Shown: in pieces, positions 3,826-42,554 of the stretch | How positions within the stretch are numbered: position 1 is the stretch's first letter | How the letters are laid out: the number at the start of each line of letters is the position of its first letter | The notes under the pieces: generated by a model | Databases searched by the model: none | What the model was told of the DNA's origin: nothing | Seen by the model: the letters and a program-made list of their open reading frames with translations, nothing else | Position numbers and translations under genes: made by a program | NCBI GenBank assembly: GCA_040755715.1 | Contig: JBFLXN010000001.1 | Span: 1-53,017 of the forward strand | Source of the DNA: Candidatus Edwardsbacteria bacterium | Lineage (GTDB): Bacteria; Edwardsbacteria; AC1; JBFLXN01 | Direction: 5' to 3' | Length of the DNA stretch: 53,017 nucleotides

Positions 3826-3854
3826 CTTTTTCTCCTAACTTTCTCACTTTAATT

Positions 3855-4090
3855 CTGTAACCACAGATTTGACAGATTTTCCGCCAAAGGCGGATCTGCC
3901 CCAGGCATGAAACGGATTACATCAAATAAATATCAAGAATCAAAACCATTCATCCTCCTCCGTTCCGATGGCCATCGGGACGGAAGACAAGCAATCCAAA
4001 ATTTAAAAATTTAACTTTTCTTGCTCCTTTTTTTATTCTTGATTTTGGATTTACTTAATCCGTCTAATCCGTTTAATCCGTGGTTTCGTT
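3855..4090. repeat. composite spacer: CACAGAT / AATCCG word arms plus small palindromes
   Basis: 275-nt gap between porD and porA. AACGGATTAC...ATCAAGAATCAAAA faces TTCTTGATTTTGG...TAATCCGT. Inner palindromes at 3881-3893 (CCGCCAAAGGCGG) and 3959-3984 (TCCGTTCCGATGGCCATCGGGACGGA). Confidence 0.5.
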
Positions 4091-4100
4091 TTCTTTCTTT

Positions 4101-4409
4101 CTATTCTTTAAATTCGCTTTCTGGAACCATAGTGATTGCTTGAATCTTAGGTGGACATTCCTTAGCGCAGATGCCACAGCCCTTACAGTAAGCCAGGTCA
4201 ATACCCACAACTTTATCATCTTTAACAATAATTGAAGAGTCAGGGCAATAAATCCAGCAAATCAGACAGTTAGTACATTTTTCGGAATGGTGAACTGGTC
4301 GTAGACTTCGCCAGTCACCCGTTTCAAATTTCTCAGCTGAACCAGGTTCCAGGAGAAGACAACCAGTGGGTAATTCTTTCCAGCCAGGTAATTTTGTACT
4401 TTCATTCAT
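4101..4409 (-). CDS. porD: 2-oxoacid:ferredoxin oxidoreductase delta subunit (2x[4Fe-4S] ferredoxin)
   Basis: 102 aa with two CxxCxxCxxxCP clusters (CTNCLICWIYCP, CKGCGICAKECP). Confidence 0.85.
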   Translation of the reverse strand: MNESTKLPGWKELPTGCLLLEPGSAEKFETGDWRSLRPVHHSEKCTNCLICWIYCPDSSIIVKDDKVVGIDLAYCKGCGICAKECPPKIQAITMVPESEFKE

Positions 4410-4498
4410 TCCTCACCTCTTTGAAATATGGATTTTATCTGAATTTCTTTGACAGATGAAAACCCTTTATCATTTGTAATTAAAGTTGCCCCTAATAC
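4406..4498 (-). pseudogene. C-terminal remnant of a PIN-domain (VapC-like) toxin
   Basis: My own translation gives VLGATLITNDKGFSSVKEIQIKSIFQRGEE*. GATLITNDKGF matches the conserved C-terminal PIN motif (LvTnDkdF). Only ~30 codons remain. The frame overlaps the stop of the upstream antitoxin-like ORF, and its TGA overlaps the porD ATG. Confidence 0.45.
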
Positions 4499-4719
4499 AA
4501 AAGTTGTTGCAGCTCACCCCTTATTCTCCTTTGGAAACATAAAGGGTCCTCCTTTATATGTAATATTCCAACATATTCCTTTAATTTTTCCCGATGCATA
4601 ATCTTTCGACCGCATTCCAATATTTGTTCAATCTCTTTCCATTCGTCATAATTAATAATGACCTCTGATGGTCTATTGTTTTCATCTAGTACGATTTTTT
4701 TATGAATAGTCTTAATCAT
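4492..4719 (-). CDS. orphan antitoxin-like protein inside the por operon
   Basis: 75 aa. IVLDENNRPSEVIINYDEWKEIEQILE followed by LKEYVGIL...DPLCFQRRIRGE resembles antitoxins that pair with PIN toxins. Confidence 0.4.
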   Translation of the reverse strand: MIKTIHKKIVLDENNRPSEVIINYDEWKEIEQILECGRKIMHREKLKEYVGILHIKEDPLCFQRRIRGELQQLLY

Positions 4720-4720
4720 T

Positions 4721-5296
4721 TTAATTAACCTCCCCTTTTACCTCCTCATAGGCTCTTTCCATTGATTTGATGTTTCCCACTACTACTTCTGGTCTATTTC
4801 TAAATTTTGCTTCCAATTTTTCTCTGGCGTCTTTCAGTAGAGACTGAAAATCTATCAGCCTAGAAATTTTCACTACGGCGGCTAACATAGGCGTATTTGG
4901 CATTTCCCGACCCATTGTTTCTTTGGAAATTGTCGTGGCATCAACGGTATATATTTTGCCACTGTTTAACTTTAATTTTTTTCGCAAATTCTTCGGGTCT
5001 TCGGGTGTATTAACAATCAAAATGCCATTTTCAGGTAACCCTGCAGTAACATCAATTTTTCCAATCAGAGTGGGGTCCAACACCGCCACAATCTTTGGCG
5101 AACTCACCTGGCAATGGACTAAAATAGGTTTATCACTCAGACGGTTGAACGACTGGACTGGAGCTCCCATTCTTTCTGGACCATATTCGGGAAAAGCCTG
5201 GATATATTTACCAGCGCTGAGTGCGGCATCAGCAAAGAGCAAGGCTACGGTTTTTGCTCCTTGTCCTCCCCGTCCATGCCAGCGAATTTCTATCAT
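4721..5296 (-). CDS. porG: 2-oxoacid:ferredoxin oxidoreductase gamma subunit
   Basis: 191 aa. N-terminus MIEIRWHGRGGQGAKT is typical of POR/VOR gamma. Confidence 0.85.
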   Translation of the reverse strand: MIEIRWHGRGGQGAKTVALLFADAALSAGKYIQAFPEYGPERMGAPVQSFNRLSDKPILVHCQVSSPKIVAVLDPTLIGKIDVTAGLPENGILIVNTPEDPKNLRKKLKLNSGKIYTVDATTISKETMGREMPNTPMLAAVVKISRLIDFQSLLKDAREKLEAKFRNRPEVVVGNIKSMERAYEEVKGEVN

Positions 5297-6793: not shown

Positions 6794-7717
6794 TTATTTC
6801 ACATAAGTCAACCAATTATGTCGGTCTTCCTCTTCGCCAGAAACAATAGCAAAGAATGCATCCTGAAGTTTCTTAGCGATTGGGCCGCGTTTCCCATCTC
6901 CAATCACAATTTTATCAATTGAAGTAATCGGACTGATTTCTGCGGCGGTGCCGGTAAAGAAGACTTCTTCTGCAATGTAGAGTGCCTCTCGTGGAATTAG
7001 CACTTCTTGAACCTCCAGTCCCAAGTCTTTGGCCAAAGTAATGACTGAATGTCGGGTGATTCCGGGAAGGACGGAAGCGCCCAGAGGTGGTGTCTGTAAT
7101 TTGCCCCATCTGACAATGAACAGATTTTCTCCCGAACCTTCGCTGACATATCCATTCACATCCAAAGCAATTCCTTCACTATACCCGTTAAGGAGTGCCT
7201 CCATTTTAATTAACTGCGAATTCATATAATTAGCGCCGCATTTGGCCAAAGCCGGAAAGGTGTTGGGAGCCATCCGATTCCAAGTAGAAACACAGACTGA
7301 AACACCCTTTTCCAAAGCCTCAGGGCCCAAGTATTTCCCCCAATCCCAAACGGCAATCGCCACATCTACCGGATTAGGAAATGGATTCACTCCAAGTTCT
7401 GCATAACCACGATAGACTACTGGGCGAATATAGCAGGACTCCATCTTATTGACCTTGACTGTTTCTAAACAGGCATTAAAGATTTCGTCTATCGTGTAAG
7501 GAATATTCATCCGATACATTTTCGCTGAATTAAAAAGTCTTTCCAGATGTTCCTTTAAACGAAAAACACCTGAGCCCTTTTTTGTCTTATAGCAGCGGAT
7601 TCCTTCAAAAACGCTTGAACCATAATGCACCACATGGGAAAGCACATGAATCTTGGCCTCGTCCCAGTTAACAAATTTCCCATTCATCCAGATTTTTTCA
7701 GTCTTGTTAAATGGCAT
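6794..7717 (-). CDS. ilvE: branched-chain amino acid aminotransferase (class IV PLP)
   Basis: 307 aa. [35 protein letters not shown] and ...GITR... are canonical IlvE motifs. Confidence 0.9.
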
Positions 7718-7817: not shown

Positions 7818-8717
7818 CTATTTACTTCCCATCACTCCTAAAGCCATTGAATAGAGTTTTGTTTCTTTAGTATCAGCGCGGGAAAGCATTACTACAGGGG
7901 CACTGGCACCTACCACAATCCCACATGCCTTTGCCTTACCTAAAAATATCAGCCCCTTGGCGAATATATTACCGGTAGCAATTTCCGGCACTAACAAGAT
8001 ATCCACCTCTCCACTGATTTTGCTCTCTATCTTCTTCTGCCTTGCCGCTTCCTTTGATACCGCCAAATCAAACGCCAGAGGTCCTTCTACTATCGCATCT
8101 TTAATCTCTCCTCTTTCTGCCATCTTTTTTAAAGCATCTGCCTCAACCGTTTCTGGCATATCTGGGTTGACAGTTTCAATTGCCGCCAAGACGGCTACTT
8201 TCGGTTTTTCTATACCCAGATGTTTTAAAAAATCTATCGCATTCTTCAGGATATCAATCTTCGTCTTAAGGTCTGGTTTCAAATTCATTCCTCCATCAGT
8301 CATAAAAAGAAGTTTATGATAGGTAGAAACCTCTAAAACACAGATATGACTTAATGTCCTTCCTGTTCTAAGTCCCTGCTCTTTATCTAAAACACCCTTG
8401 AGAAAGACAGATGTTGATACTTGTCCTTTCATCAAAATTTTTGCTCTACCTTCTCTGATGGCATTTATACCCTTTTGTATTGCCGATTTTTCGTCTTCTG
8501 TTTCTAAAATCTCAAATTCAGAAATATCTATCTTGGCAGATTTTGCTGTATTTTCAATTATTCTTTTGTTTCCAATCAATATTGATTTAGCAATTCCTTC
8601 TTCCTTCGCCAGGGCTGCCGCTTCAAGAACTACTTCATCCTCAGCCATAACAATGGCGATTTTATGGGAACCTTTTTTCTTCGCTTCTTTCAAAAGGGCG
8701 TCAAGAGATGTTATCAT
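7818..8717 (-). CDS. ptb: phosphate butyryltransferase / phosphotransacylase
   Basis: 299 aa, PTA_PTB family pattern (KIAIV.AEDE..LEAA, ILMKG.V.T, GPLAFD.A). A buk gene lies further upstream in the same array. Confidence 0.8.
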   Translation of the reverse strand: MITSLDALLKEAKKKGSHKIAIVMAEDEVVLEAAALAKEEGIAKSILIGNKRIIENTAKSAKIDISEFEILETEDEKSAIQKGINAIREGRAKILMKGQVSTSVFLKGVLDKEQGLRTGRTLSHICVLEVSTYHKLLFMTDGGMNLKPDLKTKIDILKNAIDFLKHLGIEKPKVAVLAAIETVNPDMPETVEADALKKMAERGEIKDAIVEGPLAFDLAVSKEAARQKKIESKISGEVDILLVPEIATGNIFAKGLIFLGKAKACGIVVGASAPVVMLSRADTKETKLYSMALGVMGSK

Positions 8718-12415: not shown

Positions 12416-13486
12416 CTAATATTCCTTCGCCTTCTCCTCACCCTTAATTACTCGCAATGCACCCAGTGCCAAAGCCTGCATCTCGTCTTCACCTGGATAA
12501 ATCTTCACTGGAGCAATCCAATTTACTCTTTGTCTAATCCAATCTATTAATCTCTTGAAGTTTGCTAATCCACCGGTAATGACAATAGCATCCACTTTTC
12601 CTTTCAAAACAGCCACATAAGCTCCAATTTCCTTAGCAATTTGATAAGCCATTGCTTCTACGATTAAACTTGCTTTCTCATCTCCCTTGTTCACCCTTTC
12701 TTCTATTTCTCGGCAATCGTTAGTTCCCAAGTGAGATATGAACCCACCCTTGCCATTGATTTTCTTTAACATCTCCTTTTCAGTATATTTTCCTGAGTAA
12801 CAAAGTTTTATCAATTCTACTGTTGGCAGCGTTCCGGCTCTTTCCGGAGAGAATGGTCCACCTTCATTGGCATTGTTCACATCTATAAATTTTCCTTTTT
12901 CTACAGGGGCAATAGAAATGCCCCCCCCGAGATGGACAATCACAAGATTTATATTCCTCAATTTTTTCTTTAAATCCTTTGCTCCTCTGATAGCTGTAGC
13001 TCTCATATTTAAAGCATGCAGGAGTGATTTTCGCTCAATTTCGGCTAATCCGGAAATGCGGGCTAAGGGACTAAACTCATCCACTGAGACAGGGTCAACA
13101 ATATAGGCCTCGGCTCCTGATTCATCGGCAATCTCTCTAGCAATAATCGCACCTAAATTTGAAGCATGCTCTCCCCTCTTTGCCTCTCTCAAATCTTTGA
13201 GCATCTCCTCATTCACCCGGTATGTTCCGGCAGAAAGCGGTTTTAACAGCCCCCCCCTTCCAACAACTGCATTTAAATCTTTAGCGGAAATCTTATTTCG
13301 CTTTAAAAATTCTTCTACCGCTTGTTTTCGCATCAAATACTGGTCAGCAATGTGTGAAAAAGAAGAAATCTCCTTCTCCTCGTGTCTGATCGTCTCTTCT
13401 ACTCTCAATTTCTCCCCTTGAAAGAGAGCAACTTTAGTTGAAGTAGAACCAGGATTGATGACTAAAATTAATGGTCGTCTTTTCAT
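12416..13486 (-). CDS. buk: butyrate kinase
   Basis: 356 aa. ILVINPGSTSTK, HLGGGISI and the ASKHA-fold pattern are typical of Buk. Confidence 0.9.
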   Translation of the reverse strand: MKRRPLILVINPGSTSTKVALFQGEKLRVEETIRHEEKEISSFSHIADQYLMRKQAVEEFLKRNKISAKDLNAVVGRGGLLKPLSAGTYRVNEEMLKDLREAKRGEHASNLGAIIAREIADESGAEAYIVDPVSVDEFSPLARISGLAEIERKSLLHALNMRATAIRGAKDLKKKLRNINLVIVHLGGGISIAPVEKGKFIDVNNANEGGPFSPERAGTLPTVELIKLCYSGKYTEKEMLKKINGKGGFISHLGTNDCREIEERVNKGDEKASLIVEAMAYQIAKEIGAYVAVLKGKVDAIVITGGLANFKRLIDWIRQRVNWIAPVKIYPGEDEMQALALGALRVIKGEEKAKEY

Positions 13487-14031
13487 AGATTTGACCTTTG
13501 TTCCGAGGTAGGGGCGACCCGTTGGGTCGCCCCTACTGCCTCCAATTCTACCAATGCTTCGCCGGCATTTATCAGTTTTCCGACAACAGTGTTTACTTTT
13601 CTCACTACGCCTTTGAAAGGTGACTTCAATTCATTTTCCATCTTCATTGCCTCTACAATAACAACCGTCTGATTGTGCTCCACTGTTTCCCCTTCAGAGA
13701 CATTAATTTTTACCACTGTGCCAGGCATAGGAGAGGATACCATTGCTTCTCCCGGGTGCATGGTTGGGGCGACCCGAGGGGTCGCCCCTACCGTTTCTTT
13801 TTCACTAAAATAAAATTCTCTTCCATTCAAATAGACGAATTTCTTCCCTTCATTTTCTATCAAATATGCCACAAAACTTTTGTCTCCAAGAAGTATAGAA
13901 AGACAGTTAGACGATATATAACTGTAATCAACTTTTAACTTTTTGTCTTCAAAGTTGACCAGGTATTTGTTATCTTTACATTCTATAGAAATCTTATATT
14001 CCTTTTCATTACAGATAAATTCAAATTCCAT
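13483..14031 (-). CDS. biotin carboxyl carrier (BT-like N-domain plus biotinyl domain) carrying two in-frame REP insertions
   Basis: 182 aa. Has the biotinylation motif EAMKMENEL. The two REPs translate as VGATPRVAPT and VGATQRVAPT. The stop overlaps the buk ATG. Confidence 0.8.
   Translation of the reverse strand: MEFEFICNEKEYKISIECKDNKYLVNFEDKKLKVDYSYISSNCLSILLGDKSFVAYLIENEGKKFVYLNGREFYFSEKETVGATPRVAPTMHPGEAMVSSPMPGTVVKINVSEGETVEHNQTVVIVEAMKMENELKSPFKGVVRKVNTVVGKLINAGEALVELEAVGATQRVAPTSEQRSNL
13508..13536. repeat. REP palindrome (GTAG type) forming the C-terminal tail of the BCCP
   Basis: GTAGGGGCGACCCGTTGGGTCGCCCCTAC, 29 nt. Confidence 0.85.
13763..13791. repeat. REP palindrome in the BCCP inter-domain linker
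   Basis: GTTGGGGCGACCCGAGGGGTCGCCCCTAC, 29 nt, one arm slightly degenerate. Confidence 0.8.
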
Positions 14032-14061
14032 ATTTTCCCTTTACAAATGAACACACTAATA

Positions 14062-14201
14062 GGTTGATACGGTGATACGATGATATGTTAATAAATTCGC
14101 CTCTGGCGGCGGATTTCGAGATTCGGATTTTTCTCAATGCGATATTCGAATTTCAGATTTATTTCCTTATCAGCATATCAACATATAACCATATCAACAA
14201 C
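14062..14201. repeat. operon-spacer hairpin, word GATAYG/ATATCA, with inner GATTTCG words
   Basis: Arm 14062-14094 matches the reverse complement of 14167-14201 at about 25 of 32 positions. A CCGCC..GGCGG palindrome and GATTTCGAGATTCGG words lie inside. Confidence 0.6.
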
Positions 14202-14223
14202 AAGTGAGTATCTATTTTTAGGT

Positions 14224-15738
14224 TTATACTTCCCACTTACCCACACTCAGCCAGGGATTAAAAATCTCTCTTGAAACTGTCACTCTCTGCTTTCTACCCT
14301 CCATGGCCTTGACATAGGCATCTATTCCAGCAGCAATTAGTGCCTCTTCTAGGAATTCTTTTTCTTCTTCTTTCCAGGAGGAAAAATTTTTTTCAATAAA
14401 ATTTGTTCTGGTTTGGCCATGGACAAAATCAGAATGTTGAATAACGGCACGGAGAAAATTTATTGTTGTTTTGATTCCTAAAATAATGTAATCTGAAAGA
14501 GCAGAGACCATTCTTTGTCGTGCACTTTCGCGGTTTTCTGCCCAGACAATTAATTTAGATAAAATTGGGTCATAATGTGGGCTGACTTCCCAACTGGTGT
14601 AAATCCCTGAATCAACCCTGATACCTAGACCAACTGGTTCTTTCACAAAAAGAATCTTTCCAGGAGACGGAAGAAAATTGTTTTTTGGGTCTTCTGCATA
14701 AATGCGGCATTCAATGGCATGGCCTCTTTGCTTTAATTCATTTTCCTTGATAGAAAGTTTTTCTCCTGCTGCTATTTTAATCTGTTGTTTTACTAAATCA
14801 ACACCTGTGACAGATTCTGTCACGGGGTGTTCTACCTGAATACGGGCGTTTACTTCCAGAAAATAAAAATTGCCGTTTTTGTCCAGGAGAAATTCTACTG
14901 TTCCGGCATTATTGTAATTAGCCGTTTTGATAACCTTAACTGCAGTCTCACCCATCTTCTCGCGCAATTCATCGTTAAGAGCGGTTGAAGGTGATTCTTC
15001 AATAATCTTCTGATGGCGACGTTGAATAGAACATTCTCTTTCAAAGAGGTGAATCGCATTTCCGTAATTATCGGCTAGAACTTGAAATTCTATATGACGG
15101 GGCTCTTCTAAGTATTTTTCCAGATAGACGGAATCATCGCCGAAAGCTGATTTTGCCTCCCGCATTCCTGCCGCTATTGAAGCTTCTAATTCACTCTCAG
15201 AATTAATGAGTCGCATTCCTTTCCCCCCCCCACCACCAGAGGCTTTTAACAATACTGGATAGCCAATTTTCTTCGCCTCTTCTTTAAACTCTGACGAGTC
15301 TTTACTGCTTTTTTTCATTCCAGGGATAATTGGAATCTTTGCTTTAGTCATTGTTTGTCTGGATTCAACCTTATCCCCTACCAGACGAAGAGCTTCTGAA
15401 TTTGGGCCAATGAAGACAATTTTAGCTTCTTCGCAGGCTTTGGCGAAAATATGATTCTCTGCCAGAAACCCGTAGCCGGGGTGAATTGCTTCTGCCTTGA
15501 ATTTTTTAGTTGTATCAATAATCTTATCAATATTTAGATAACTTTCTAGCGGTGGCGGTGGACCAATACAAACTGCTTCATCAGCCATTTGAACATGAAG
15601 CGAGCTTCTATCTGCGGTAGAATAGAGTGCTACTGTAGGAATACTCATTTCGCGGCAGGCTCGTATAATTCTAACCGCAATTTCACCACGATTGGCAATA
15701 AGAATTTTTTTAAACACTGCGGTTTCTATTCGCACCAC
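14224..15738 (-). CDS. biotin carboxylase subunit of an acyl-CoA carboxylase (probably the methylcrotonyl-CoA carboxylase alpha-equivalent)
   Basis: 504 aa. KILIANRGEIAVRIIRA, GGGGKGMR and the ATP-grasp pattern. No fused BCCP domain. Confidence 0.9.
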   Translation of the reverse strand: MVRIETAVFKKILIANRGEIAVRIIRACREMSIPTVALYSTADRSSLHVQMADEAVCIGPPPPLESYLNIDKIIDTTKKFKAEAIHPGYGFLAENHIFAKACEEAKIVFIGPNSEALRLVGDKVESRQTMTKAKIPIIPGMKKSSKDSSEFKEEAKKIGYPVLLKASGGGGGKGMRLINSESELEASIAAGMREAKSAFGDDSVYLEKYLEEPRHIEFQVLADNYGNAIHLFERECSIQRRHQKIIEESPSTALNDELREKMGETAVKVIKTANYNNAGTVEFLLDKNGNFYFLEVNARIQVEHPVTESVTGVDLVKQQIKIAAGEKLSIKENELKQRGHAIECRIYAEDPKNNFLPSPGKILFVKEPVGLGIRVDSGIYTSWEVSPHYDPILSKLIVWAENRESARQRMVSALSDYIILGIKTTINFLRAVIQHSDFVHGQTRTNFIEKNFSSWKEEEKEFLEEALIAAGIDAYVKAMEGRKQRVTVSREIFNPWLSVGKWEV

Positions 15739-16520
15739 TTTGGTTTTCTCTTTTCCAAAAATGCGGTCATTCCTTCCTGGCCTTCATCACTCATTCTCAA
15801 ACCTGCAATTACCTCTGCCGTATATTTTTTTACTTCTTCAAAGTTCATTGCCGGAACTTTCTTCAATAATTCCTTGCAGGTAGCCAAAGCTTCTGGACCG
15901 CTGGACAAGAGTTGATTCACCATCTCATTTACGGACTCATCAAGTTTCTCTAAAGGTATCACCTGATTTATCAATCCAGCTTCCAGTGCCTTCTCTGCTG
16001 AAAGTCTCTCACCAGTGAGAAAAAATTCTCTACATCGTCCTTCTCCAATGCGTCTAATTACATAAGGAGAAATACAGGCTGGCACTACCCCTATTTTTAC
16101 TTCACTAAAACTGAACTGGGCATTACTAGCAGCAATAGCCATATCACATACCGCTACAAAGCCTGTTCCTCCACCGATAGCCGCACCATTAACTCTGGCA
16201 ATGGTTGGCTTTGGTAAAGAATAAATAGTATAAAATAATTCGGCTAAATTTAAAGATTCCTTTAAATTTTCTTCAAAGGTATAGTCTTTTACACGGCGCA
16301 TCCAGTTCAAATCGGCACCGGCACAAAATGATTTCCCTTCACCTGTCAGAATAACTAAGCGAATGTCTTTATTATCAGTTATATGATGAAAAGTTTCTAA
16401 AAGTTCATTAATCATTACATCGTTAAAGGCATTGTGAACTTCAGGTCTATGGAGAATAACTTTTGCTATCGGGATTTCTAAAAGCAGAAGAATTGTTTGA
16501 AACTCTTTTTTATTTCTCAT
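15726..16520 (-). CDS. enoyl-CoA hydratase/isomerase family protein, candidate methylglutaconyl-CoA hydratase
   Basis: 264 aa crotonase fold (FCAGADL, GGG...). The specific assignment rests only on its position between MCC-beta and BC/BCCP. Confidence 0.6.
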   Translation of the reverse strand: MRNKKEFQTILLLLEIPIAKVILHRPEVHNAFNDVMINELLETFHHITDNKDIRLVILTGEGKSFCAGADLNWMRRVKDYTFEENLKESLNLAELFYTIYSLPKPTIARVNGAAIGGGTGFVAVCDMAIAASNAQFSFSEVKIGVVPACISPYVIRRIGEGRCREFFLTGERLSAEKALEAGLINQVIPLEKLDESVNEMVNQLLSSGPEALATCKELLKKVPAMNFEEVKKYTAEVIAGLRMSDEGQEGMTAFLEKRKPKWCE

Positions 16521-17095
16521 AGTATTTTGTCATAAAAATAAGGGTTGGATTGATTACAGCGATTAACTAAAAAGATTTTTGAAAAAATTATTTTCTTTTG
16601 AAGGAAATCTATAATTTTTACCTCTGTTCTTTTACGATTGCATTCCAAAATAGCGTATGAAGGTGGAAAGCCTTTCTTATCTTCCTTTTTTAGATGTCCC
16701 GGGTTCACCCATAAGACCCCTTCTTCCTCTTTAAGCTCTGGCTTGTGTGTATGGCCGTAGAGTATAACATCTACTTCTCTATTTTTTACGACTTCTTCTG
16801 GTTTAATATCCGAGGGGAAATCATTGGGGTGAGAAGTTGGAGAATGGGTGAGGAGAAAGCGCAAGCCTTCAAATTCCTTGATAACTCTATGCGGTAGGTT
16901 TGATTCAACATAGATAGGTTCATAGACACCGGGAATCTCAATCCATTCAACTGAAGGCTCTTTCAATCCCTCCAAATCGGTTATATCGTCTCCTAAATGA
17001 ATAAATATTTCAACACCTTCCTGATGAAATTTATCTATAACTTTTTTCAGATATTCAATATTACCGTGCGTATCACTAACTACACCAATCTTCAT
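16517..17095 (-). CDS. YfcE-like metallophosphoesterase
   Basis: 192 aa with MKIGVVSDTHGN, GD..D and GHTH motifs. Confidence 0.7.
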   Translation of the reverse strand: MKIGVVSDTHGNIEYLKKVIDKFHQEGVEIFIHLGDDITDLEGLKEPSVEWIEIPGVYEPIYVESNLPHRVIKEFEGLRFLLTHSPTSHPNDFPSDIKPEEVVKNREVDVILYGHTHKPELKEEEGVLWVNPGHLKKEDKKGFPPSYAILECNRKRTEVKIIDFLQKKIIFSKIFLVNRCNQSNPYFYDKIL

Positions 17096-17477
17096 ATTCT
17101 TTGTTTAGAATTCTCAGGTCTTTTATGGAATAATGTTTAGCATTGTAAGTAACCAGTATTAGATCATTGAGAATACAAGTAGCAGCTATTATTGCGTCAA
17201 CGAAATCAAAAATAATTCCCTTGGTTTTATATTTACGAATATATTCTCCAGTTAAATTGGCGACATTTCTATCTACCTTACATACTTTGAGATTGTTTAG
17301 TAGTAAATTCGTTGCTTCTTCCTCTCCTGCTTTTACACCCACTTGAACTTCTATAATTGAGACAGCAGAACAATAAGGTATCCCTTCTTGACTTAATTTC
17401 TCCACAAGTTCTATCGTTTCTTTTTTATTTCTCAGACACCAGATCAAGACATCTGAATCTAGGAGATATTTAGGCAT
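17076..17477 (-). CDS. vapC: PIN-domain toxin VapC
   Basis: 133 aa. N-terminal YLLDSDVLI, and a C-terminal ILVTYNAKHY PIN motif. Confidence 0.8.
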   Translation of the reverse strand: MPKYLLDSDVLIWCLRNKKETIELVEKLSQEGIPYCSAVSIIEVQVGVKAGEEEATNLLLNNLKVCKVDRNVANLTGEYIRKYKTKGIIFDFVDAIIAATCILNDLILVTYNAKHYSIKDLRILNKEYEDWCS

Positions 17478-17748
17478 TGAGCAATTTTTCTATTCTTTTG
17501 TTAGCTGAACTGCGAATTTTTTTTAGGTACCGGTTTAGGCCTCTTTGGTTCTTTAGCGTGGGATGATTTTTGTCACTCCAGCTTCCCTTTGTTCTATTTA
17601 GGGCTTGTAAGAATTTCATTCTTTCTAACTTTTCCTTTGTCGCCTCAACTACGAAACTACTTCTCTTTCCTTTACCCACTATTTTCTTTATTTCTTCAAG
17701 TAAATCTTCAGGAAAGAGGATATTAGTTCTTATACTATGTGCCACCAT
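17470..17748 (-). CDS. vapB: ribbon-helix-helix antitoxin (VapB-like)
   Basis: 92 aa. IRTNILFPEDLLEEIKKIV...RSSFVVEATKEKL resembles RHH. Overlaps vapC by 8 nt. Confidence 0.65.
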   Translation of the reverse strand: MVAHSIRTNILFPEDLLEEIKKIVGKGKRSSFVVEATKEKLERMKFLQALNRTKGSWSDKNHPTLKNQRGLNRYLKKIRSSANKRIEKLLNA

Positions 17749-17785
17749 ATTTTAAAAGCTCCAATTTCATTTTATCCACATAATT

Positions 17786-17814
17786 ATTATACATAAATGG
17801 TATGCATTTGTCAA
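17786..17814 (-). promoter_or_regulatory. consensus sigma70 promoter for vapBC, internal to the array
   Basis: Minus strand reads TTGACA (17814-17809), 17 nt, TATAAT (17791-17786), about 38 nt upstream of the vapB ATG. Confidence 0.6.
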
Positions 17815-17820
17815 CAAATT

Positions 17821-19428
17821 TCACATCCTAAACACTCCAAATCTATGGTCAGGGATTGGTGCATTCAAAGACATGGCGATAGCCAAGCCCAGAGCGGTTC
17901 GGGTTTCTAATGGCTCCACAATACCATCATCCCAGAGTCTTGCCGTAGAATAATAGGCAGAAGATTCCTCTTCGTATTTTGCTAGAGTCGGTGCCTTAAA
18001 TTTTTCCTGTTCTTCTTCTGTCATTGTTTCACCCTTTTTCCTTAGTGCTTCCATTTTGACCTGTAGCAAAGTGCTCGCCGCTTGTTCACCTCCCATCACA
18101 CAGATTTTGGCATTTGGCCACATCCAAAGAAGTCGTGGTCTGTATGCCCTTCCACACATCGCATAATTACCCGCACCATAAGAGCCTCCGATAATCACGG
18201 TGAACTTGGGCACATCAGCATTTGCCACCGCATGAACCATCTTTGCCCCATCTTTGGCAATGCCTCCGTGTTCATACTGTTTACCGACGATGAAGCCTGT
18301 AATATTTTGTAAGAAAACGAGGGGTATCTTTCTCACGGCACATAGAGAAATAAAGTGAGCACCCTTTTGGGCAGACTCTGAAAACAGAACTCCATTGTTT
18401 GCCAATATCCCTGCTGGATAGCCCATAATTTTGGCAAAGCCACAGACTAAAGTTACTCCGTATAACTCTTTAAATTCGTGGAATTCACTGTTATCAACAA
18501 TTCGGGCAATAATTTCTCGCATATCAAAAGACTTTTTCAAATCCTTTGGAATAATACCGTAAATTTCTTCAGAGTCATAATATGGTTCTTTTGGTTCAGA
18601 AACATCCAGTTCAAATTTCTGTGGCTTTGACAAATTTTGCAAGATATTTCTGCAAATTTCAATGGCGTGTTCGTCGTTAAGTGCGTAGTGGTCAGAGACC
18701 CCGGAAATTCGGCAATGCACATCCGCCCCCCCCAATTGCTCTGCGGTTACTTCTTCACCAGTAGCCGCTTTAACCAGCGGTGGTCCACCAATGTAGATTG
18801 TTCCCTGTCCTTTGACGATAATGGTCTCATCGCTCATCGCTGGCACATAGGCTCCGCCAGCGGTGCAAAAGCCCAACACCACTGAGATCTGAGGAATATT
18901 GAGAGCTGAAAATCTTGCTTGATTATAAAAAATCTTCCCAAAATGGTCTTTATCTGGAAATGTGCCAGACTGCATAGGAAGAAAGATACCACCAGAATCA
19001 ACAAGATAGACACAAGGTAGACGATTTTCCAAAGCAATTTCTTGAGCTCTCACATGTTTCTTGATTGTCTCCGGGAAATAGGTGCCACCTTTAACGGTAG
19101 CGTCGTTAGCCACAACCAAAACCTCTCTACCATGAACAACTCCAACGCCGGTAATGATGCCAGCGCAAGGCGCTTCGTTATTATGCAAGTCATAAGCGGC
19201 TAATGGACTAAATTCCAAAAATGGGGTGTTTTTGTCAAATAAAAGGTTTAATCTCTCCCGAACCAGCAATTTCCCACGAGCTTTGTGTCTTTCAATTTGG
19301 TCTGTTGGACCACCGGCTTTTACTTTAGTAAGTCGCTCTTTAAATTCATCAACCACTCGTTTCAATGCAGTTTTATTCTCTTGAAATTCCTTTGATTTGA
19401 CATCAATCTTTGATTCAATGCGATACAT
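17821..19428 (-). CDS. methylcrotonyl-CoA carboxylase carboxyltransferase (beta) subunit
   Basis: 535 aa. [15 protein letters not shown]...[13 protein letters not shown]...[12 protein letters not shown]...DHFG.IFYNQA...[14 protein letters not shown] closely parallels the remembered MCCC2/LiuB sequence. Confidence 0.85.
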
Positions 19429-19443
19429 AGATTTGCTCCTTGT

Positions 19444-20277
19444 TCACTTAAACCACTGCCCTCCAGTAAAAGCCAAAATAGAAGCAAGGCGAATAATCCT
19501 TACGAGTTCAGCCACATTCTTTGGCTTAAATTTGACAGTCCGACCACTCGTTCGTTCTATTCCAGGAATTAAAGTCACCAGGTCAGTTCTGAGTGTGTCC
19601 ATCAATTGCAGTTCCAATTCCAACGGTGGCGAGATTTTAAAAATGGGAGTCTTTTTTGCCTTAAGAACGGCGAGTTTTGCTTTCTCTCTCAATTCTTCTT
19701 CAATATCCTTTGGATGTCGGGTTGTAACAGCAAATCTGGAAATACCATATTTGGTGACTACATACTCAACTCCCTCGGGCAAAGTTTGTTGAGTATGTTC
19801 AATAAGTTTAGCATCTCCGGCCACTAACCCTACTGGCACTCCGAAATGTCCAGCGTAAGCGGCATTAATAGTAGTTTCACTCATTTCTTTACCATTGACC
19901 TTAATTGAATATATACTGGATGAAGAAAATGTATGGTCCATTGGAGCTGAAACAGTTCCTGCTTTGGCATGATGCCCGATAAGAAAAACCAGTTCAAATG
20001 TAGAATTAAGACCTTCCATCATTCCATAGGGTCGTGGCACTCCCCTTGTCACAAGGGTTCCCTTCGGTAGTTCTTCAAATAAAATATTGTTCATTTTTCC
20101 GTGAGAATCGCAGACGACAATCTTCTTGACCTCTATCTCAGCGTCCTTTATGCCTTCAATAACGGCGTTGACTTCGTTGGTCATAATTTTGCGGTAGCGT
20201 AGTCCTTCCTTTTCAAAATCCTCCCAGGACATTGTTCCAGCTACGCCTTCCATATCAACGGAAATAAAGAATTTCAC
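19444..20277 (-). CDS. M55 family D-aminopeptidase (DppA-like)
   Basis: 277 aa. N-terminus MKFFISVDMEGVAG is typical of Peptidase_M55. Confidence 0.75.
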   Translation of the reverse strand: MKFFISVDMEGVAGTMSWEDFEKEGLRYRKIMTNEVNAVIEGIKDAEIEVKKIVVCDSHGKMNNILFEELPKGTLVTRGVPRPYGMMEGLNSTFELVFLIGHHAKAGTVSAPMDHTFSSSSIYSIKVNGKEMSETTINAAYAGHFGVPVGLVAGDAKLIEHTQQTLPEGVEYVVTKYGISRFAVTTRHPKDIEEELREKAKLAVLKAKKTPIFKISPPLELELQLMDTLRTDLVTLIPGIERTSGRTVKFKPKNVAELVRIIRLASILAFTGGQWFK

Positions 20278-20310
20278 GGTTACCTCCTATTGTTAAAAAG
20301 GCAAAGATTA

Positions 20311-20427
20311 AAATTGAGGTTAAGGTTTAGAGAAGGAAGTAAAAGTCAATGTGCTAGATGGAGAATTTTACGGATTAAACGGAGAAACACCAGATTTTTC
20401 TTAACCTTAACCTCAACCTTAACCTTA
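20311..20427. repeat. operon-spacer hairpin, word GGTTAAG
   Basis: ATTGAGGTTAAGGTT (left) faces AACCTTAACCTCAACCTTAACC (right), with a 14-nt perfect core. Confidence 0.65.
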
Positions 20428-20445
20428 TCTTTTTTCTAGCTGTAT

Positions 20446-20835
20446 CTATACCAGCACTGCCTTATGTCCGTAGCAGAGAATTCCTGCCTTTCCATCCTCC
20501 TGAATTCGGCGAAATTCTAAACGCGCCTTCTTGCCAATCTCAATTTGGTCAAAATCACAATCAACAATCTGAGTGGTAACTCTAACTCCGCCATCTAACT
20601 CTACGATACCAACAACATAGGGTACCTCATCAGAGAATTGGCTCGGAGCAACACTAATTACGGTGAATGTTACAATCTTACCCTCGTCACTTAAAAAAAC
20701 AGTCTCAAATTCCCTATTCTTACATTTCGCACAAATTAAGCGAGGCGGGAAATAGATTGCGCCACACCTCTTGCATTTCGCCGCTTCAAGGCGATAGCGC
20801 TGTGGGATTTCACGATGATACCTTGCAGGAAACAT
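20446..20835 (-). CDS. Zn-ribbon/OB-fold DUF35 protein (scaffold of the thiolase/HMG-CoA synthase complex)
   Basis: 129 aa. Has a CKRCG...CAKC zinc ribbon followed by an OB fold. Lies directly downstream of thiolase and HMGCS. Confidence 0.8.
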   Translation of the reverse strand: MFPARYHREIPQRYRLEAAKCKRCGAIYFPPRLICAKCKNREFETVFLSDEGKIVTFTVISVAPSQFSDEVPYVVGIVELDGGVRVTTQIVDCDFDQIEIGKKARLEFRRIQEDGKAGILCYGHKAVLV

Positions 20836-20960
20836 ATTTACCTCCCTTCAAAGTGTTTCGTTCCTTCGTTTGTCGGTTGTGAGGCTCGTTTAGGCTAAGT
20901 CTTTAGGTGTCGTAATTCGTTTCCTTTCACCAAAACAAGACCAAGCAACTGTTTTACTTT

Positions 20961-22121
20961 TTATATTGCCTCTAATATATGCACTACCGTGCTTCCACCC
21001 GTGCCGCCCATATTCTGTGTCAGTCCCCTCTTCGCCTTTTCTACCTGTCTCTTTCCTGCTTCTCCTCTCAATTGTTCCACAATTTCGCATATTTGGGCAA
21101 CCCCGGTGGCACCAACCGGATGTCCCTTAGACTTTAATCCACCACTTACATTAACTGGAATCTTGCCGCCCAAAGAAGTAATCCCGCTTTCTACCGCAGG
21201 TCCGCCTTTCCCTTTTTCTACTAATCCGAGTGCTTCGGTAATGCAGATTTCGGCGATGGTAAAACAATCATGGACTTCAACCAAATCTACATCTTTGGGA
21301 TTGACATTTGCCATCTTGTAGGCAATTTCTGCCGCCTTTATTGTAGCATTAAAAGCAGTGAGGTCTTCTCTGGAATGCAGAGCAATAGTATCTGTAGCGT
21401 GCCCGACGCCAACAATTTTTACCAATGGCTTTTTCTCTGCTATCTTCTTTGCCATTTCCAGTGAGCAGAGAATAACAGCCGCCGCCCCGTCAGTAATCGG
21501 AGAACAGTCAAGGACTCTCAAAGGGTCAGCCACCATTGGTGAACTAAGGACTGCTTCCACTGTAATCTCCGAAGGATATTGGGCGTAAGGATTCATAGAA
21601 CCGTGCTTATGATTCTTCACTGCCACTTTGGCTAACTGTTCTCGCGTAGTGCCAAACTTTTGCATATGTGCCCGAGCAATCATTGCATATAATCCGGGAA
21701 ATGTTACACCTTGGTATGCCTCATATTCCTGGTCCGAGGCAGTAGCTAGAGCGTAGGTGGCACCATCAACAGAAACATCCGTCATCTTTTCCACACCACC
21801 GACTAAGACCACATCATTTATTCCAGAAGCAACTTCTATGAATCCTTGTCTAACAGCTACTCCTCCTGAGGCGCAGGCAGATTCTACTCTGGTGGCCGGA
21901 ATGGGAGCTACACCGAGATAGTCCGCCAAAAGAGAACCCAGATGTTCTTGTCCAATGAAAAGTCCACTGGACATACAGCCGATATACATTGAATCAATAT
22001 GGTCAACACCAGCGTCATCAATGGCTTTTAAGGCAGCCTCTACAAAAATTTGCCGCAGGGATTTCGTCCACAACTCTCCCCACTTAATCATTCCTACACC
22101 AATAATCGCTACTTCACGCAT
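20961..22121 (-). CDS. archaeal-type acetoacetyl-CoA thiolase
   Basis: 386 aa. [11 protein letters not shown], active-site region VESACASGG, and C-terminal [14 protein letters not shown]. Confidence 0.85.
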
Positions 22122-22145
22122 AGTTTCCTCCCTTGTTAACAGTAG

Positions 22146-22195
22146 ACAGAAGGCAGAAAGCAGTAAGCAAGCTGCTTTCTGCTTTCTGCTTTCTG
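22146..22195. repeat. operon-spacer hairpin, word GCAGAAAG
   Basis: CAGAAGGCAGAAAGCAG, loop TAAGCAAG, then CTGCTTTCTGC(TTTCTGC)CTTCTG. The stem is essentially perfect, with one extra 7-nt word on the right arm. Confidence 0.8.
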
Positions 22196-22215
22196 CCTTC
22201 TGCTTTTTTCTCCTT

Positions 22216-23262
22216 TCATTCTGCCTTCAAAATTTTTCTGCGGAATTTTGCATAGGTTCCATAGTCAATATATTTCTTATTATTGTCCAGCATCCATCTG
22301 GTCTTCGGGGCTTTGTTGCGAACTTCATCAATTTTCTTGGTCACGGTAAAGATAAACGCATCACTACCAGCACCAGAACCAAAGGAGACTAAAAGAATTT
22401 TGTCGCCTGACTTAGCAATATCCAAGGTAGCGGTTAATCCCATAGGTGAAGAGCCGGAATAAGTATTGCCCAAAGTAGGTGAAAGCCAGCCTGGCTCAAT
22501 TTGCTCCTTAGTAAATCCCAACATCTTGCCGACTGCTTGGGGGAATTTTCCGTTCGGCTGATGAAAAATGACATAATTGAAATCTTGAGGCTTCATCTTT
22601 GCTTTTGCCATGATTCCTTTGGCCGCACCTTGAATGTGTTTGAAATAGGCAGGTTCTCCGGTAAATCTACTGGCATGTCTCGGATAGTGTTCATATTCCC
22701 TTCTCCAAAAATCTGCAGTATCGGTCATATAGGCGTAGGTCTCATTAACTTCCGCAATTAACTTTTCTTTGCCAAAGATAAAGGCGGCGGCGCCAGCAGC
22801 AGCTGAATATTCAAGGGCATCTCCTGGCGCGCCTTGGGATGTATCAGCACCCACTGCCAGTCCATATTTTATTTCGCCTGCTTTAACCAGGCCGAGGCAG
22901 ACGAACATTGCTTCAGTTCCTGCCTTACAGGCAAACTCAAATGAGGCAGAATGAACCTCGGGGGTAGCATTTATTGCCTCAGCCAAAACTGTAGCACTCG
23001 GCTTCACTGCGTAGGGATGAGATTCAGACCCGACATAAGCGGCACCGATTTCTTTTGGGTCTATTTCTGCTCTCTTGAGTGCATTCTTGGTTGCTTCAAC
23101 TGACATCGTGATTGTGTCTTCGTCCAAAGCAGGCACAGCTTTTTCCCGTAACATCAAACCTTTCTTATAACTCTCCGCATCTGCCCCCCAGACCTTAGCA
23201 ATTTCTTCCACTTTTATTCTGTGCCTCGGGATATAGGCACCGTAGCCAACTATTCCAACCAT
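22216..23262 (-). CDS. archaeal-type hydroxymethylglutaryl-CoA synthase
   Basis: 348 aa. [16 protein letters not shown]...EFACKAGT... matches the UPF0219/HMGCS pattern. Lies in a trio with thiolase and DUF35. Confidence 0.85.
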
Positions 23263-25053: not shown

Positions 25054-25785
25054 TCATAGAATTTTGACATTGCCCGCAATTATTTTTCTTAAAGAACCAT
25101 CACTCATCTCTATTAGCAAAGCACCATCCTCGTCTAAGTCTACTGCTTTACCTTCAATGACTTCAGTTGGCGTTCTCACCTCAATCCGCCGATTGAACAT
25201 TTGAGAAAAGGATTTCCACTCTTTCAAAATGTAAGCAAGTCTACTCTCTATAAAGAGGAAATAAACTTGATTCAACTCATATTCTAAGTCCTTAATAAAA
25301 TTATCTATTACAATCTCTTTTTGAAGTTCTTTCTTAATTGAAGTAGTTTCTCTCAATTCTTCGGGAAATGTCTCTATATCAAGATTGGCATTGATTCCAA
25401 TTCCCAATATAACTGCTTTCCATTTGCTGTTTGTTTCTGTCAGGATACCGGCAACTTTTTTACCATTCAATAGGACATCGTTTGGCCATTTGAGGGAAGG
25501 ATTTAGCCCTAATTTCTTAATTGCCTTTGCTACTGCAATGGAAGCCAGTAATGAAATAGGTGGAAAGAAATTCTGCGAGAGTGGTGGTTTTAGAATCACT
25601 GAGAGATAAACGCCACCGGGAGGAGAAAACCAGACTCTATTAAGTCTCCCCCTCCCTTTCTTCTGCACTTCAGCAATAATGATTGTCCCCTCTTCAGCTT
25701 CATCAGCAATTTCTTTGGCAAAATCCTGAGTAGAATCAATCTCAGTAAAGCGATAGATTTTTTTACCAATCAAGATAACCCTCAC
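25054..25785 (-). CDS. birA: biotin-[acetyl-CoA-carboxylase] ligase (group I, no HTH)
   Basis: 243 aa. Has QKKGRGRLNRVWFSPPGG (the GRGRxGR.W motif) and KWPNDVL. Confidence 0.85.
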   Translation of the reverse strand: MRVILIGKKIYRFTEIDSTQDFAKEIADEAEEGTIIIAEVQKKGRGRLNRVWFSPPGGVYLSVILKPPLSQNFFPPISLLASIAVAKAIKKLGLNPSLKWPNDVLLNGKKVAGILTETNSKWKAVILGIGINANLDIETFPEELRETTSIKKELQKEIVIDNFIKDLEYELNQVYFLFIESRLAYILKEWKSFSQMFNRRIEVRTPTEVIEGKAVDLDEDGALLIEMSDGSLRKIIAGNVKIL

Positions 25786-25913: not shown

Positions 25914-27167
25914 TCAGTTTTCCGCCCTTTTAAACACCATCGCCACTACCGTTTTGTCATTTCCGCCCATACTTGACAGCATTCCATAGGGACGAGTTTC
26001 CAAGTCAATCTTCACCTGACAATCTCCGGCTTTTCCTGTAAGTTGATGCAGAATATCTACTGCTTGTCTCACGCCGGTAGCACCAGTGGGATGTCCATAT
26101 CCAATAAGACCGCCGGTAGTATTCGTTGGAATCTCTCCATTTAGGCGGGTCTTTCCCTCCTTTACAAAATCTGCTCCTTCAGCATATTTGCAGAGTCCAA
26201 TCGCTTCAATCGCCAGAAGACCGGCAATAGTAAAGCAGTCATGAACCTCAAGAACACCCAAATCTTTAGGGGTGATACCTGCTCGTTCATAGGCAAGTTT
26301 AGCTGCTCTTTCACAGGTTGTGAGCCTCGTCAAATCTGGTGGTAGTACGGTTAAGTCATCCTGGCACTGGGCATAGGCAAGAACTTCTACTGCATCCTTT
26401 TTTGAGACACCTATTTTTTTAAGTCCCTCTTCAGAGGCAAAGATGATAGCGGAAGCACCATCAGAAACTTTGGAGCAATCGTAGGCGTTTATATGCTCGC
26501 AAAATGCTTTGGGACTCGGTGGAGTCATTCCCACGGCAAACAGGTCTTTAGTCTCGTTATGATACTCCTGGGCTTTTGGGTTTTTTCTGGCATTCTCAAT
26601 AGCCTGAACATACCAGTGAGTCATTCCTTCTCTGATTCTTTCCTTCCCAAACTTCTCAAAGCAAGCACCTGCTCTATCTGAGAACTTTGCCGGGAAGAAG
26701 TAGGCATGTCCATCTTTTCTCTCTCCTTTATACCAGCCTGCGGCCGCCAGATAGTCTGCGCCATAGAGAGCCTTTACGGTATTCTGGACCTCAACACCGA
26801 TGCACAAGACAACATCTGCAAGGTCTGCCAAAATTGTCTTAATTGAGACAACTAGGGCTAAACCGCCAGAATCGCAGGCCCCTTCAACTCTGGTGCAAGG
26901 TTTGTAAAGAAATGCCTTATCAACCATTGGAAAGAATCCACCGAGGTTTCCCTGACGGACAAACCTCTCGGCGACAAAGTTTCCAATCACTCCTTCATCA
27001 ATATTTTCTGCACTGTTTATCTGGACTATCGTTCCTTTCCCGGCTTCTAAGATGTAGTGTTCAATTCCCGGTCTTTCTGCCTTCGGGCTGAACTCTTTTC
27101 TTCCTGAACCAAACGAGACGGTGTTATAACCCGCAGTAACATAGATAGGTTTTCTGAGTTTAATCAT
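25914..27167 (-). CDS. thiolase-like protein (SCP-x/lipid-transfer type)
   Basis: 417 aa. Has VEGACDSGG (nucleophile Cys), HDCFTIAG and GYGHPTGATG motifs. Confidence 0.7.
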   Translation of the reverse strand: MIKLRKPIYVTAGYNTVSFGSGRKEFSPKAERPGIEHYILEAGKGTIVQINSAENIDEGVIGNFVAERFVRQGNLGGFFPMVDKAFLYKPCTRVEGACDSGGLALVVSIKTILADLADVVLCIGVEVQNTVKALYGADYLAAAGWYKGERKDGHAYFFPAKFSDRAGACFEKFGKERIREGMTHWYVQAIENARKNPKAQEYHNETKDLFAVGMTPPSPKAFCEHINAYDCSKVSDGASAIIFASEEGLKKIGVSKKDAVEVLAYAQCQDDLTVLPPDLTRLTTCERAAKLAYERAGITPKDLGVLEVHDCFTIAGLLAIEAIGLCKYAEGADFVKEGKTRLNGEIPTNTTGGLIGYGHPTGATGVRQAVDILHQLTGKAGDCQVKIDLETRPYGMLSSMGGNDKTVVAMVFKRAEN

Positions 27168-42494: not shown

Positions 42495-42554
42495 AATTTT
42501 TTCTTCTCCACCTTTTTCCTCTCCCATCAAAGAGGAGGAGTTTTTGGTGTAAGA

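Follow-up and report, generated by a model that had tools for sequence, protein, structure and literature searches.

An archaeal-type HMG-CoA synthase complex in a bacterial methylcrotonyl-CoA carboxylase operon: a probable substitute for HMG-CoA lyase in leucine and isovalerate catabolism

Here, we analysed a stretch of 53,017 nucleotides (the window) that constitutes contig 1 (JBFLXN010000001.1) of a groundwater metagenome-assembled genome (MAG) of Candidatus Edwardsbacteria (GCA_040755715.1; 2.93 Mb, 358 contigs, 95.9% complete and 1.5% contaminated). It holds a module of seven genes, in which an archaeal-type synthase of 3-hydroxy-3-methylglutaryl-CoA (HMG-CoA), an acetoacetyl-CoA thiolase and a DUF35 protein (together, the trio) share an operon with methylcrotonyl-CoA carboxylase (MCC) and a putative 3-methylglutaconyl-CoA hydratase. 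The module probably serves the catabolism of leucine or isovalerate, and the trio would then run in reverse, replacing HMG-CoA lyase and yielding three acetyl-CoA. This reading, which we draw from the genes, is carried by the conservation of the operon across bacterial phyla, by the catalytic residues of its products, and by the absence of known HMG-CoA consumers from the genome. Full-text searches of a literature library found no paper linking the trio with MCC or leucine, and the papers found on the archaeal complex itself make no mention of leucine or carboxylases.

A conserved operon of the trio and methylcrotonyl-CoA carboxylase

All genes between 12.4 and 23.3 kb of the window lie on the minus strand. 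Their identities were assigned with Pfam and NCBIfam profiles and by sequence comparison with PDB entries, and the cut-offs quoted are the curated thresholds of the models. Every gene that the first-pass annotation had named along this strand, from the HMG-CoA synthase (HMGCS), thiolase, DUF35, M55 peptidase and MCC beta subunit (MCCbeta) through vapBC and a phosphoesterase to the hydratase, biotin carboxylase (BC), biotin carboxyl carrier protein (BCCP) and buk, was found in its place:

22216-23262, minus strand: archaeal-type HMGCS, 348 amino acids, first gene of the module (TIGR00748, 565 bits, cut-off 353)
20961-22121, minus strand: SCP-x-type acetoacetyl-CoA thiolase, 386 amino acids (PRK06064, 567 bits)
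20446-20835, minus strand: DUF35 zinc-ribbon/OB scaffold protein, 129 amino acids (PF12172, zf-ChsH2, and PF01796, OB_ChsH2_C)
19444-20277, minus strand: M55 D-aminopeptidase-like gene (PF04951, 305 bits)
17821-19428, minus strand: MCCbeta, the carboxyltransferase, 535 amino acids (closest PDB matches are MCC beta subunits)
17470-17748, minus strand: small open reading frame (ORF) of 92 amino acids, presumed VapB antitoxin (no Pfam match; overlaps the PIN gene by 8 bases)
17076-17477, minus strand: PIN-domain VapC-like toxin gene (PF01850, 56 bits)
16517-17095, minus strand: YfcE-type metallophosphoesterase (TIGR00040, 78 bits, cut-off 56)
15726-16520, minus strand: putative LiuC-type 3-methylglutaconyl-CoA hydratase of the crotonase family, 264 amino acids (PRK05674/PRK07468 and a one-glutamate signature)
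14224-15738, minus strand: BC, part of a split MCC alpha subunit, 504 amino acids (Biotin_carb_N, CPSase_L_D2 and Biotin_carb_C; TIGR00514, 658 bits)
13483-14031, minus strand: BCCP, C-terminal part of the split MCC alpha subunit, 182 amino acids (BT-domain remnant and biotinyl domain)
12416-13486, minus strand: butyrate kinase (buk; TIGR02707, 517 bits, cut-off 289), overlapping the stop of BCCP

HMGCS scores 468 bits against chain I of PDB entry 6ESQ, the M. thermolithotrophicus synthase of the Methanothermococcus complex; its second-best solved relatives are PhlA-type chains (222-227 bits), and it reaches 119 bits on the MvaS-type model TIGR01835, which has a cut-off of 360. The thiolase obtains 559 bits on NF053570, the model of the M. 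thermolithotrophicus thiolase, slightly below the cut-off of 600. The four best solved relatives of MCCbeta, which include M. tuberculosis AccD1, span 706-764 bits, with Legionella 9TPS at 764, P. aeruginosa 3U9R at 739 and human 8J4Z at 721, as compared to 461 bits for geranyl-CoA carboxylase and at most 277 for relatives of the propionyl-CoA carboxylase (PCC) type; 9TPS is the Legionella MCC (bioRxiv 10.64898/2025.12.22.694428). BCCP carries the biotinylation motif AMKM, and its residues 20-163 align with residues 533-672 of Legionella MCC alpha. BC and BCCP together make up the split alpha subunit. The split is common to the other genomes bearing the module (loci L013-L093), where the two parts have median lengths of 507 and 168 amino acids. 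These other genomes are called carriers below, and in our numbering of genomes G000 is the window's own.

A scan that took one genome for each GTDB species detected at least 578 relatives of HMGCS, and the closest 80 are all bacterial. The loci of these 80 were compared together with that of G018, a member of the same phylum as the window's genome, which gives 81 loci. The order HMGCS-thiolase-DUF35 is found in 70 of the 81, and contig ends cut most of the remaining loci. Among the 59 informative loci, i.e., those with at least 1.8 kb of sequence past DUF35, MCCbeta is the next gene (gap below 1.5 kb) in 42, comes after an insertion of 2-4 kb in another 5, and lies upstream or divergently nearby in 2. 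These informative loci fall under about 12 phylum-level labels. The record labels of the 80 closest loci are Acidobacteriota/Aminicenantes, Zixibacteria, Eisenbacteria, WOR-3, Ignavibacteria, Coatesbacteria, Glassbacteria and Deltaproteobacteria, under all of which MCCbeta is found directly behind DUF35, together with Cloacimonadota (MCCbeta behind an insertion), Planctomycetota (MCCbeta nearby and divergent), Calditrichota and Gemmatimonadota.

The phylum of the window's genome is represented by 19 species genomes, and only the window's genome and G018 have HMGCS. G018 belongs to a different class; its genes follow the order HMGCS-thiolase-DUF35-MCCbeta-hydratase-BC-BCCP, are closely spaced (90 bases separate DUF35 from MCCbeta) and are not interrupted by an M55 peptidase, vapBC or phosphoesterase gene. 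Orthologues of MCCbeta (78-100% identity) occur in both trio-bearing genomes and in none of the 17 others, which hold a PCC-type paralogue only. We conclude that the trio forms a unit with the MCC/hydratase set and that their adjacency is far beyond chance, because the operon is conserved across phyla and is uninterrupted in G018. The link that the first-pass annotation had drawn between the two halves from one contig is thus borne out.

Catalytic residues, HMG-CoA consumers and known systems

The residues that distinguish HMG-CoA chemistry are retained throughout the trio. The E-C-H-N tetrad of HMGCS (Glu80, Cys112, His234 and Asn266) is invariant in 82 of 82 sequences, Cys83 and the HDxF motif of the thiolase (HDCF, residues 284-287) are invariant in 74 of 74, and about 65 of 70 relatives retain the four zinc-ribbon cysteines of DUF35; the definitions of the tetrad and of HDxF were taken from PMC12960953. 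The known bacterial descendants of the archaeal-type complex are the secondary-metabolite acylases PhlABC of Pseudomonas and MucABC of Streptococcus, which share its tripartite architecture (PMC12960953, PMC6392133). In these Friedel-Crafts acyltransferases both the tetrad and the HDxF motif have been lost (PMC12960953), whereas the window's trio keeps both and stands in primary acyl-CoA metabolism. Because the features lost in PhlABC and MucABC stay invariant here, we regard the trio as HMG-CoA-competent, that is, as a true HMG-CoA-handling complex and not an acylase.

The hydratase has Gly120 at the position equivalent to Glu144 of crotonases and Glu140 at that equivalent to Glu164, in 47 of 47 sequences, while an ordinary crotonase elsewhere in the window (32935-33705) has both catalytic glutamates. 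The one-glutamate state is known from P. putida LiuC and P. aeruginosa AtuE, in which the free carboxylate of the substrate itself is thought to take over the role of the absent base; substrates that have no such group are not hydrated by LiuC (PMC13689101). Since enzymes of the LiuC/AtuE kind depend on a carboxylated substrate, the substrate of the window's hydratase probably has a free carboxylate too, and 3-methylglutaconyl-CoA, which MCC produces, would fit.

Enzymes that would consume HMG-CoA in a conventional way were looked for by profile searches of the whole genome. There was no match to HMG-CoA lyase (NF004283) or to any HMGL-like domain (PF00682), to a CitE/HpcH-type lyase (PF03328), to HMG-CoA reductase (PF00368), or to the CoA_trans fold (PF01144) that is expected of an AibA/B decarboxylase. 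The search for CitE/HpcH matters because the mycobacterial CitE-like protein Rv2498c can act as an HMG-CoA lyase. Mevalonate kinases are also missing from the genome; IspE is its sole GHMP kinase, Dxr is encoded, and isoprenoids therefore come from the methylerythritol phosphate (MEP) pathway. The first-pass annotation had noted that no lyase or isovaleryl-CoA dehydrogenase is visible in 53 kb, and indeed the window contains neither a lyase nor an acyl-CoA dehydrogenase gene. It had also proposed that a complete mevalonate pathway elsewhere, together with co-expression of the trio unrelated to MCC, or a canonical lyase/dehydrogenase operon would speak against the link; the genome has neither a mevalonate pathway nor a lyase operon.

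The same pattern is seen in the 43 carriers. HMG-CoA lyase scores above its cut-off in 3 of them and not in the other 40, and HMG-CoA reductase occurs in 9, mostly labelled Zixibacteria or Ignavibacteria. Lyase, reductase and CitE-like protein are all missing in 18 of 44 genomes when the window's own is counted. One of the carriers, a WOR-3 record deposited as a chromosome (L084/G055), has the full operon and no lyase, reductase or CitE-like protein, so the absence is not accounted for by gaps in assembly. For the Zixibacteria-type phylum, which is that of G039, we took 239 genomes, each at least 85% complete: the synthase is nearly universal (198 genomes), the canonical lyase is rare (35), and 172 of the synthase-bearing genomes have no lyase. 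A strict either/or relation of trio and lyase was ruled out, as both are present in 26 genomes of this phylum and neither in 32.

As a side observation, in seven carriers (G024, G033, G034, G041, G044, G053 and G059; loci L099 and L101-L104), most of them again under the labels Zixibacteria or Ignavibacteria, the reductase domain is part of open frames about 750-820 amino acids long, a length that suggests a fusion protein; the trio of these lineages may feed mevalonate synthesis as well.

The archaeal thiolase/HMGCS/DUF35 complex has the protein composition and gene order of the window's trio, and the likeness extends to the 468 bits of HMGCS to 6ESQ_I, the tetrad, the thiolase cysteine, the HDxF motif and the zinc ribbon. 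In contrast to it, the window's trio is a predicted complex, belongs to an MEP-pathway bacterium without reductase or mevalonate kinases, shares one operon with MCC and a LiuC-type hydratase, and is proposed to work in the reverse direction. The other half of the operon resembles leucine and isovalerate clusters. Pseudomonas liuABCDE likewise unites the beta and alpha functions of MCC and a one-glutamate hydratase in one operon, and MCC and a hydratase are also clustered in Desulfococcus multivorans (Mcc, EchA2, HmgL), whose anaerobic isovalerate cluster uses the lyase HmgL, as supported by proteomics (PMC5109826). The window differs from both in that LiuE/HmgL is missing from cluster and genome and the trio takes its position, that MCC alpha is split into BC and BT/BCCP, and that no acyl-CoA dehydrogenase lies in the window; an acyl-CoA dehydrogenase of the short-chain Bcd type stands on the operon strand, as in liu, in 12 related loci. 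We read the module as a liu-type cluster in which LiuE has been replaced by the archaeal-type complex.

Proposed direction of the module and alternative readings

Candidate enzymes for the steps that lead to the module, and for its biotinylation and energy yield, are encoded on the same strand of the window:

7818-8717, minus strand: phosphate butyryl/acyl-transferase (ptb), partner of buk (PF01515; PRK08190, 345 bits, cut-off 282)
6794-7717, minus strand: branched-chain aminotransferase IlvE, first step from leucine (TIGR01122, 444 bits, cut-off 246)
1727-5296, minus strand: 2-oxoacid:ferredoxin oxidoreductase of four subunits, gamma 4721-5296, ferredoxin 4101-4409, alpha 2647-3825 and beta 1727-2647 (POR, Fer4, POR_N/PFOR_II and TPP_enzyme_C)
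25054-25785, minus strand: biotin protein ligase BirA (PF03099 and PF02237)

In the scheme that follows, we infer the direction of flux, the ATP balance and the choice of the dehydrogenase for isovaleryl-CoA. Leucine would be transaminated by IlvE, and the oxo acid would be converted to isovaleryl-CoA by the 2-oxoacid:ferredoxin oxidoreductase, which is our candidate for the step from 2-oxoisocaproate; alternatively, isovalerate could enter after activation through buk/ptb. A short-chain acyl-CoA dehydrogenase with electron-transfer flavoprotein (ETF) would give 3-methylcrotonyl-CoA, which MCC (beta and the split alpha) would carboxylate with bicarbonate at the expense of ATP, and the LiuC-type hydratase would then form (S)-HMG-CoA. 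This is the isomer made by HMGCS. Reversed with respect to the archaeal direction, the trio would convert HMG-CoA and two CoA into three acetyl-CoA and H2O. In this reaction, the free carboxymethyl arm would be loaded on the synthase cysteine and the C3-C4 bond cut, giving an acetyl-enzyme, released as acetyl-CoA, and acetoacetyl-CoA, which would move between the two active sites and be split by the neighbouring thiolase into two acetyl-CoA.

The lyase route costs one thioester because its acetoacetate needs re-activation, and as the trio would form no free acetoacetate, one extra thioester would be saved per leucine. By this stoichiometry, leucine would give three acetyl-CoA minus one ATP for MCC, i.e., 2 ATP by substrate-level phosphorylation, as compared to 1 ATP by the lyase route and also 1 by excretion of isovalerate; for isovalerate, whose activation consumes one thioester, the net yield would rise from 0 to 1. 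More speculatively, acetoacetyl-CoA might be diverted to butyrate through hbd and crt of the window, as an internal electron sink. A passage of PMC12960953, citing Vogeli 2018, describes the archaeal complex as pairing an unfavourable thiolase condensation with a favourable synthase step. Because the two steps offset each other, the net reaction of the trio should not be far from equilibrium and should be reversible by mass action.

Several points weigh against this scheme. The genome is a MAG of 358 contigs, and the absence of a lyase leans on its completeness of 95.9% and on the pattern in other carriers. Both HMGCS and a canonical lyase are carried by 26 Zixibacteria-type genomes, and in the nine reductase-bearing carriers the trio may feed mevalonate synthesis too, or instead. 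HMGCS is regarded as favouring the synthase direction, so that the reverse would need thiolysis and removal of acetyl-CoA as a pull. The hydratase obtains about 272 bits on PRK05674 and PRK07468, below their cut-offs of 426 and 350. The genome-wide search for isovaleryl-CoA dehydrogenase and ETF that the first-pass annotation had proposed gave four acyl-CoA dehydrogenases and two ETF pairs on other contigs, but all four dehydrogenases are generic Bcd/AcrC-like proteins under every equivalog cut-off. We rejected naming any of these short-chain types isovaleryl-CoA dehydrogenase.

The first-pass annotation had also offered an anabolic use, similar to the myxobacterial alternative isovaleryl-CoA route (MvaS, LiuC, AibA/AibB, AibC), which likewise combines HMGCS and a LiuC-type hydratase with branched C5 units. 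The trio would here make HMG-CoA from three acetyl-CoA, the hydratase would dehydrate this to 3-methylglutaconyl-CoA, and a reversed, ATP-yielding MCC would decarboxylate the latter to 3-methylcrotonyl-CoA. Reduction to isovaleryl-CoA would follow, for iso-branched lipids or, after reductive carboxylation and transamination, for leucine, without AibA/B. We retain this as an unlikely explanation. It is consistent with the native, synthase-competent form of the trio and with the presence in the window of IlvE and of an oxidoreductase of a reversible type, and LiuC is common to both directions in myxobacteria. Furthermore, 27 of the 43 carriers have no HMGL-like domain and hence no LeuA, and 11 of these keep ketol-acid reductoisomerase, so that a standard biosynthetic route may be missing there for leucine only. 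However, the genome has no CoA_trans fold for an AibA/B-type decarboxylase. It also differs from the myxobacterial route by a complete, ATP-dependent MCC and by a synthase of the archaeal complex type instead of MvaS. The direction required of MCC would be without precedent, as we know of no biotin carboxylase-containing enzyme that is a physiological decarboxylase. The window's genome lacks IlvC as well, which points to a general auxotrophy with uptake rather than to a special leucine route, and as a fermentation the pathway would be a poor electron sink, with one reduction per three acetyl-CoA. A broader version, in which the seven genes form a reversible C5-C2 link that runs anabolically to leucine in the 11 of 43 carriers with IlvC and without LeuA, seems to us distinctly improbable; if true, leucine would be made there without isopropylmalate, and a biotin carboxylase would for the first time be seen to run backwards physiologically with formation of ATP. 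The 11 carriers with ketol-acid reductoisomerase and no LeuA-type domain are G020, G024, G032, G033, G034, G039, G041, G045, G053, G057 and G058.

The presence of an ATP-dependent (ATP-grasp) BC argues for MCC in the carboxylation direction; the decarboxylating biotin enzymes of anaerobes are, to our knowledge, without a biotin carboxylase subunit. Cleavage of leucine-derived HMG-CoA by the reversed complex, the other possibility raised by the first-pass annotation, fits the evidence better than the anabolic reading, because BC is ATP-dependent, IlvE, the oxidoreductase, ptb and buk lie in the window, and LeuA and IlvC are missing.

Both halves of the module may also operate in the directions known from textbooks and meet at HMG-CoA, which an unrecognised enzyme would consume, such as a novel lyase or reductase, a hydrolase, or the crotonase of the operon itself acting as a hydratase/lyase. 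Hydratase/lyases of the crotonase family perform the same retro-aldol chemistry, and the hydratase weakly matches the HCHL model PRK09120 (167 bits, cut-off 276), but it fits the LiuC/AtuE signature better. Known consumers are indeed found in some genomes, with an HpcH/CitE-like protein in 17 of 44 (not the window's) and the reductase in 9 of 43 carriers, while the window's genome, G018 and the carrier deposited as a chromosome are without every known one. The operons of the related loci share no additional conserved gene of unknown function, and convergence on HMG-CoA would leave the sharing of an operon by trio and MCC across phyla unexplained. We consider it unlikely.

The window's own copy of the operon raises a further explanation, namely that the adjacency is a relic. 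Three foreign units, i.e., the M55 gene, the vapB-like ORF with the PIN gene, and the phosphoesterase, break the operon in the window's genome only. The M55 gene is absent from this position in all 81 related loci and is read here as an insertion into a conserved operon, specific to this genome; the PIN gene and the YfcE phosphoesterase are missing from related operons. Between the MCCbeta stop and the vapB-like ORF sits a perfect sigma-70 consensus (TTGACA, 17 nt, TATAAT; 12/12) at 17814-17786 on the minus strand. The insertions could have uncoupled the two halves, leaving their genes to be used independently or to decay. This is highly improbable, as the seven module genes are intact, full length and co-directional and keep every conserved catalytic residue, and no strong terminator signal exceeding the shuffled expectation lies within the module. 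Apart from the one perfect promoter consensus, a scan for promoters and terminators gave no more hits than expected from shuffled sequence. The toxin-antitoxin insertion may have brought a promoter of its own, which perhaps drives the hydratase, BC, BCCP and buk too.

Surrounding genes and implications

The wider gene content is in line with a life on amino acids. No LeuA or citramalate synthase (no HMGL-like domain) and no IlvC was found in the whole genome, so branched-chain amino acids must be taken up, and a search of the genome for haem-copper oxidase found none. The organism looks like an anaerobe that feeds on amino acids and short acids and is auxotrophic for branched-chain amino acids. 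Butyrate kinase is the sole acetate-kinase-family gene of the genome (PF00871 genome search), and kinase-type substrate-level phosphorylation looks to hinge on the one ptb/buk pair.

A second SCP-x-type thiolase-like gene of 417 amino acids (25914-27167, minus strand) is 36% identical to the thiolase of the trio, has no adjoining DUF35 or synthase, and does not belong to the operon conserved in other genomes. Farther upstream, also on the minus strand, 29205-53017 holds a second carboxylase set (CT, i.e., carboxyltransferase, 45281-46831; BC 41004-42530; BCCP 40325-40840), a methylmalonyl-CoA-type mutase, an ICM-type mutase, a B12 subunit, MeaB and an epimerase, as well as methionine gamma-lyase, alanine dehydrogenase, a CoA-transferase, crt and hbd (3-hydroxyacyl-CoA dehydrogenase). 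HEPN/nucleotidyltransferase pairs and ORFs of the 23S-rRNA-IVS family are interspersed in this region.

If the trio cleaves HMG-CoA, leucine and isovalerate breakdown would have a second, non-homologous end that saves one more thioester, and an archaeal channelling complex would work as a reversible machine. The ATP obtained by substrate-level phosphorylation from complete leucine fermentation would be doubled, and isovalerate oxidation would become energy-positive for anaerobes near the thermodynamic limit. Uncultured phyla of sediment and groundwater commonly hold the module, and in these groups automatic annotation based on the lyase would score the pathway as incomplete and assign the synthase wrongly to mevalonate synthesis. 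This would carry over into models of how proteins and branched-chain fatty acids are turned over in anoxic habitats.

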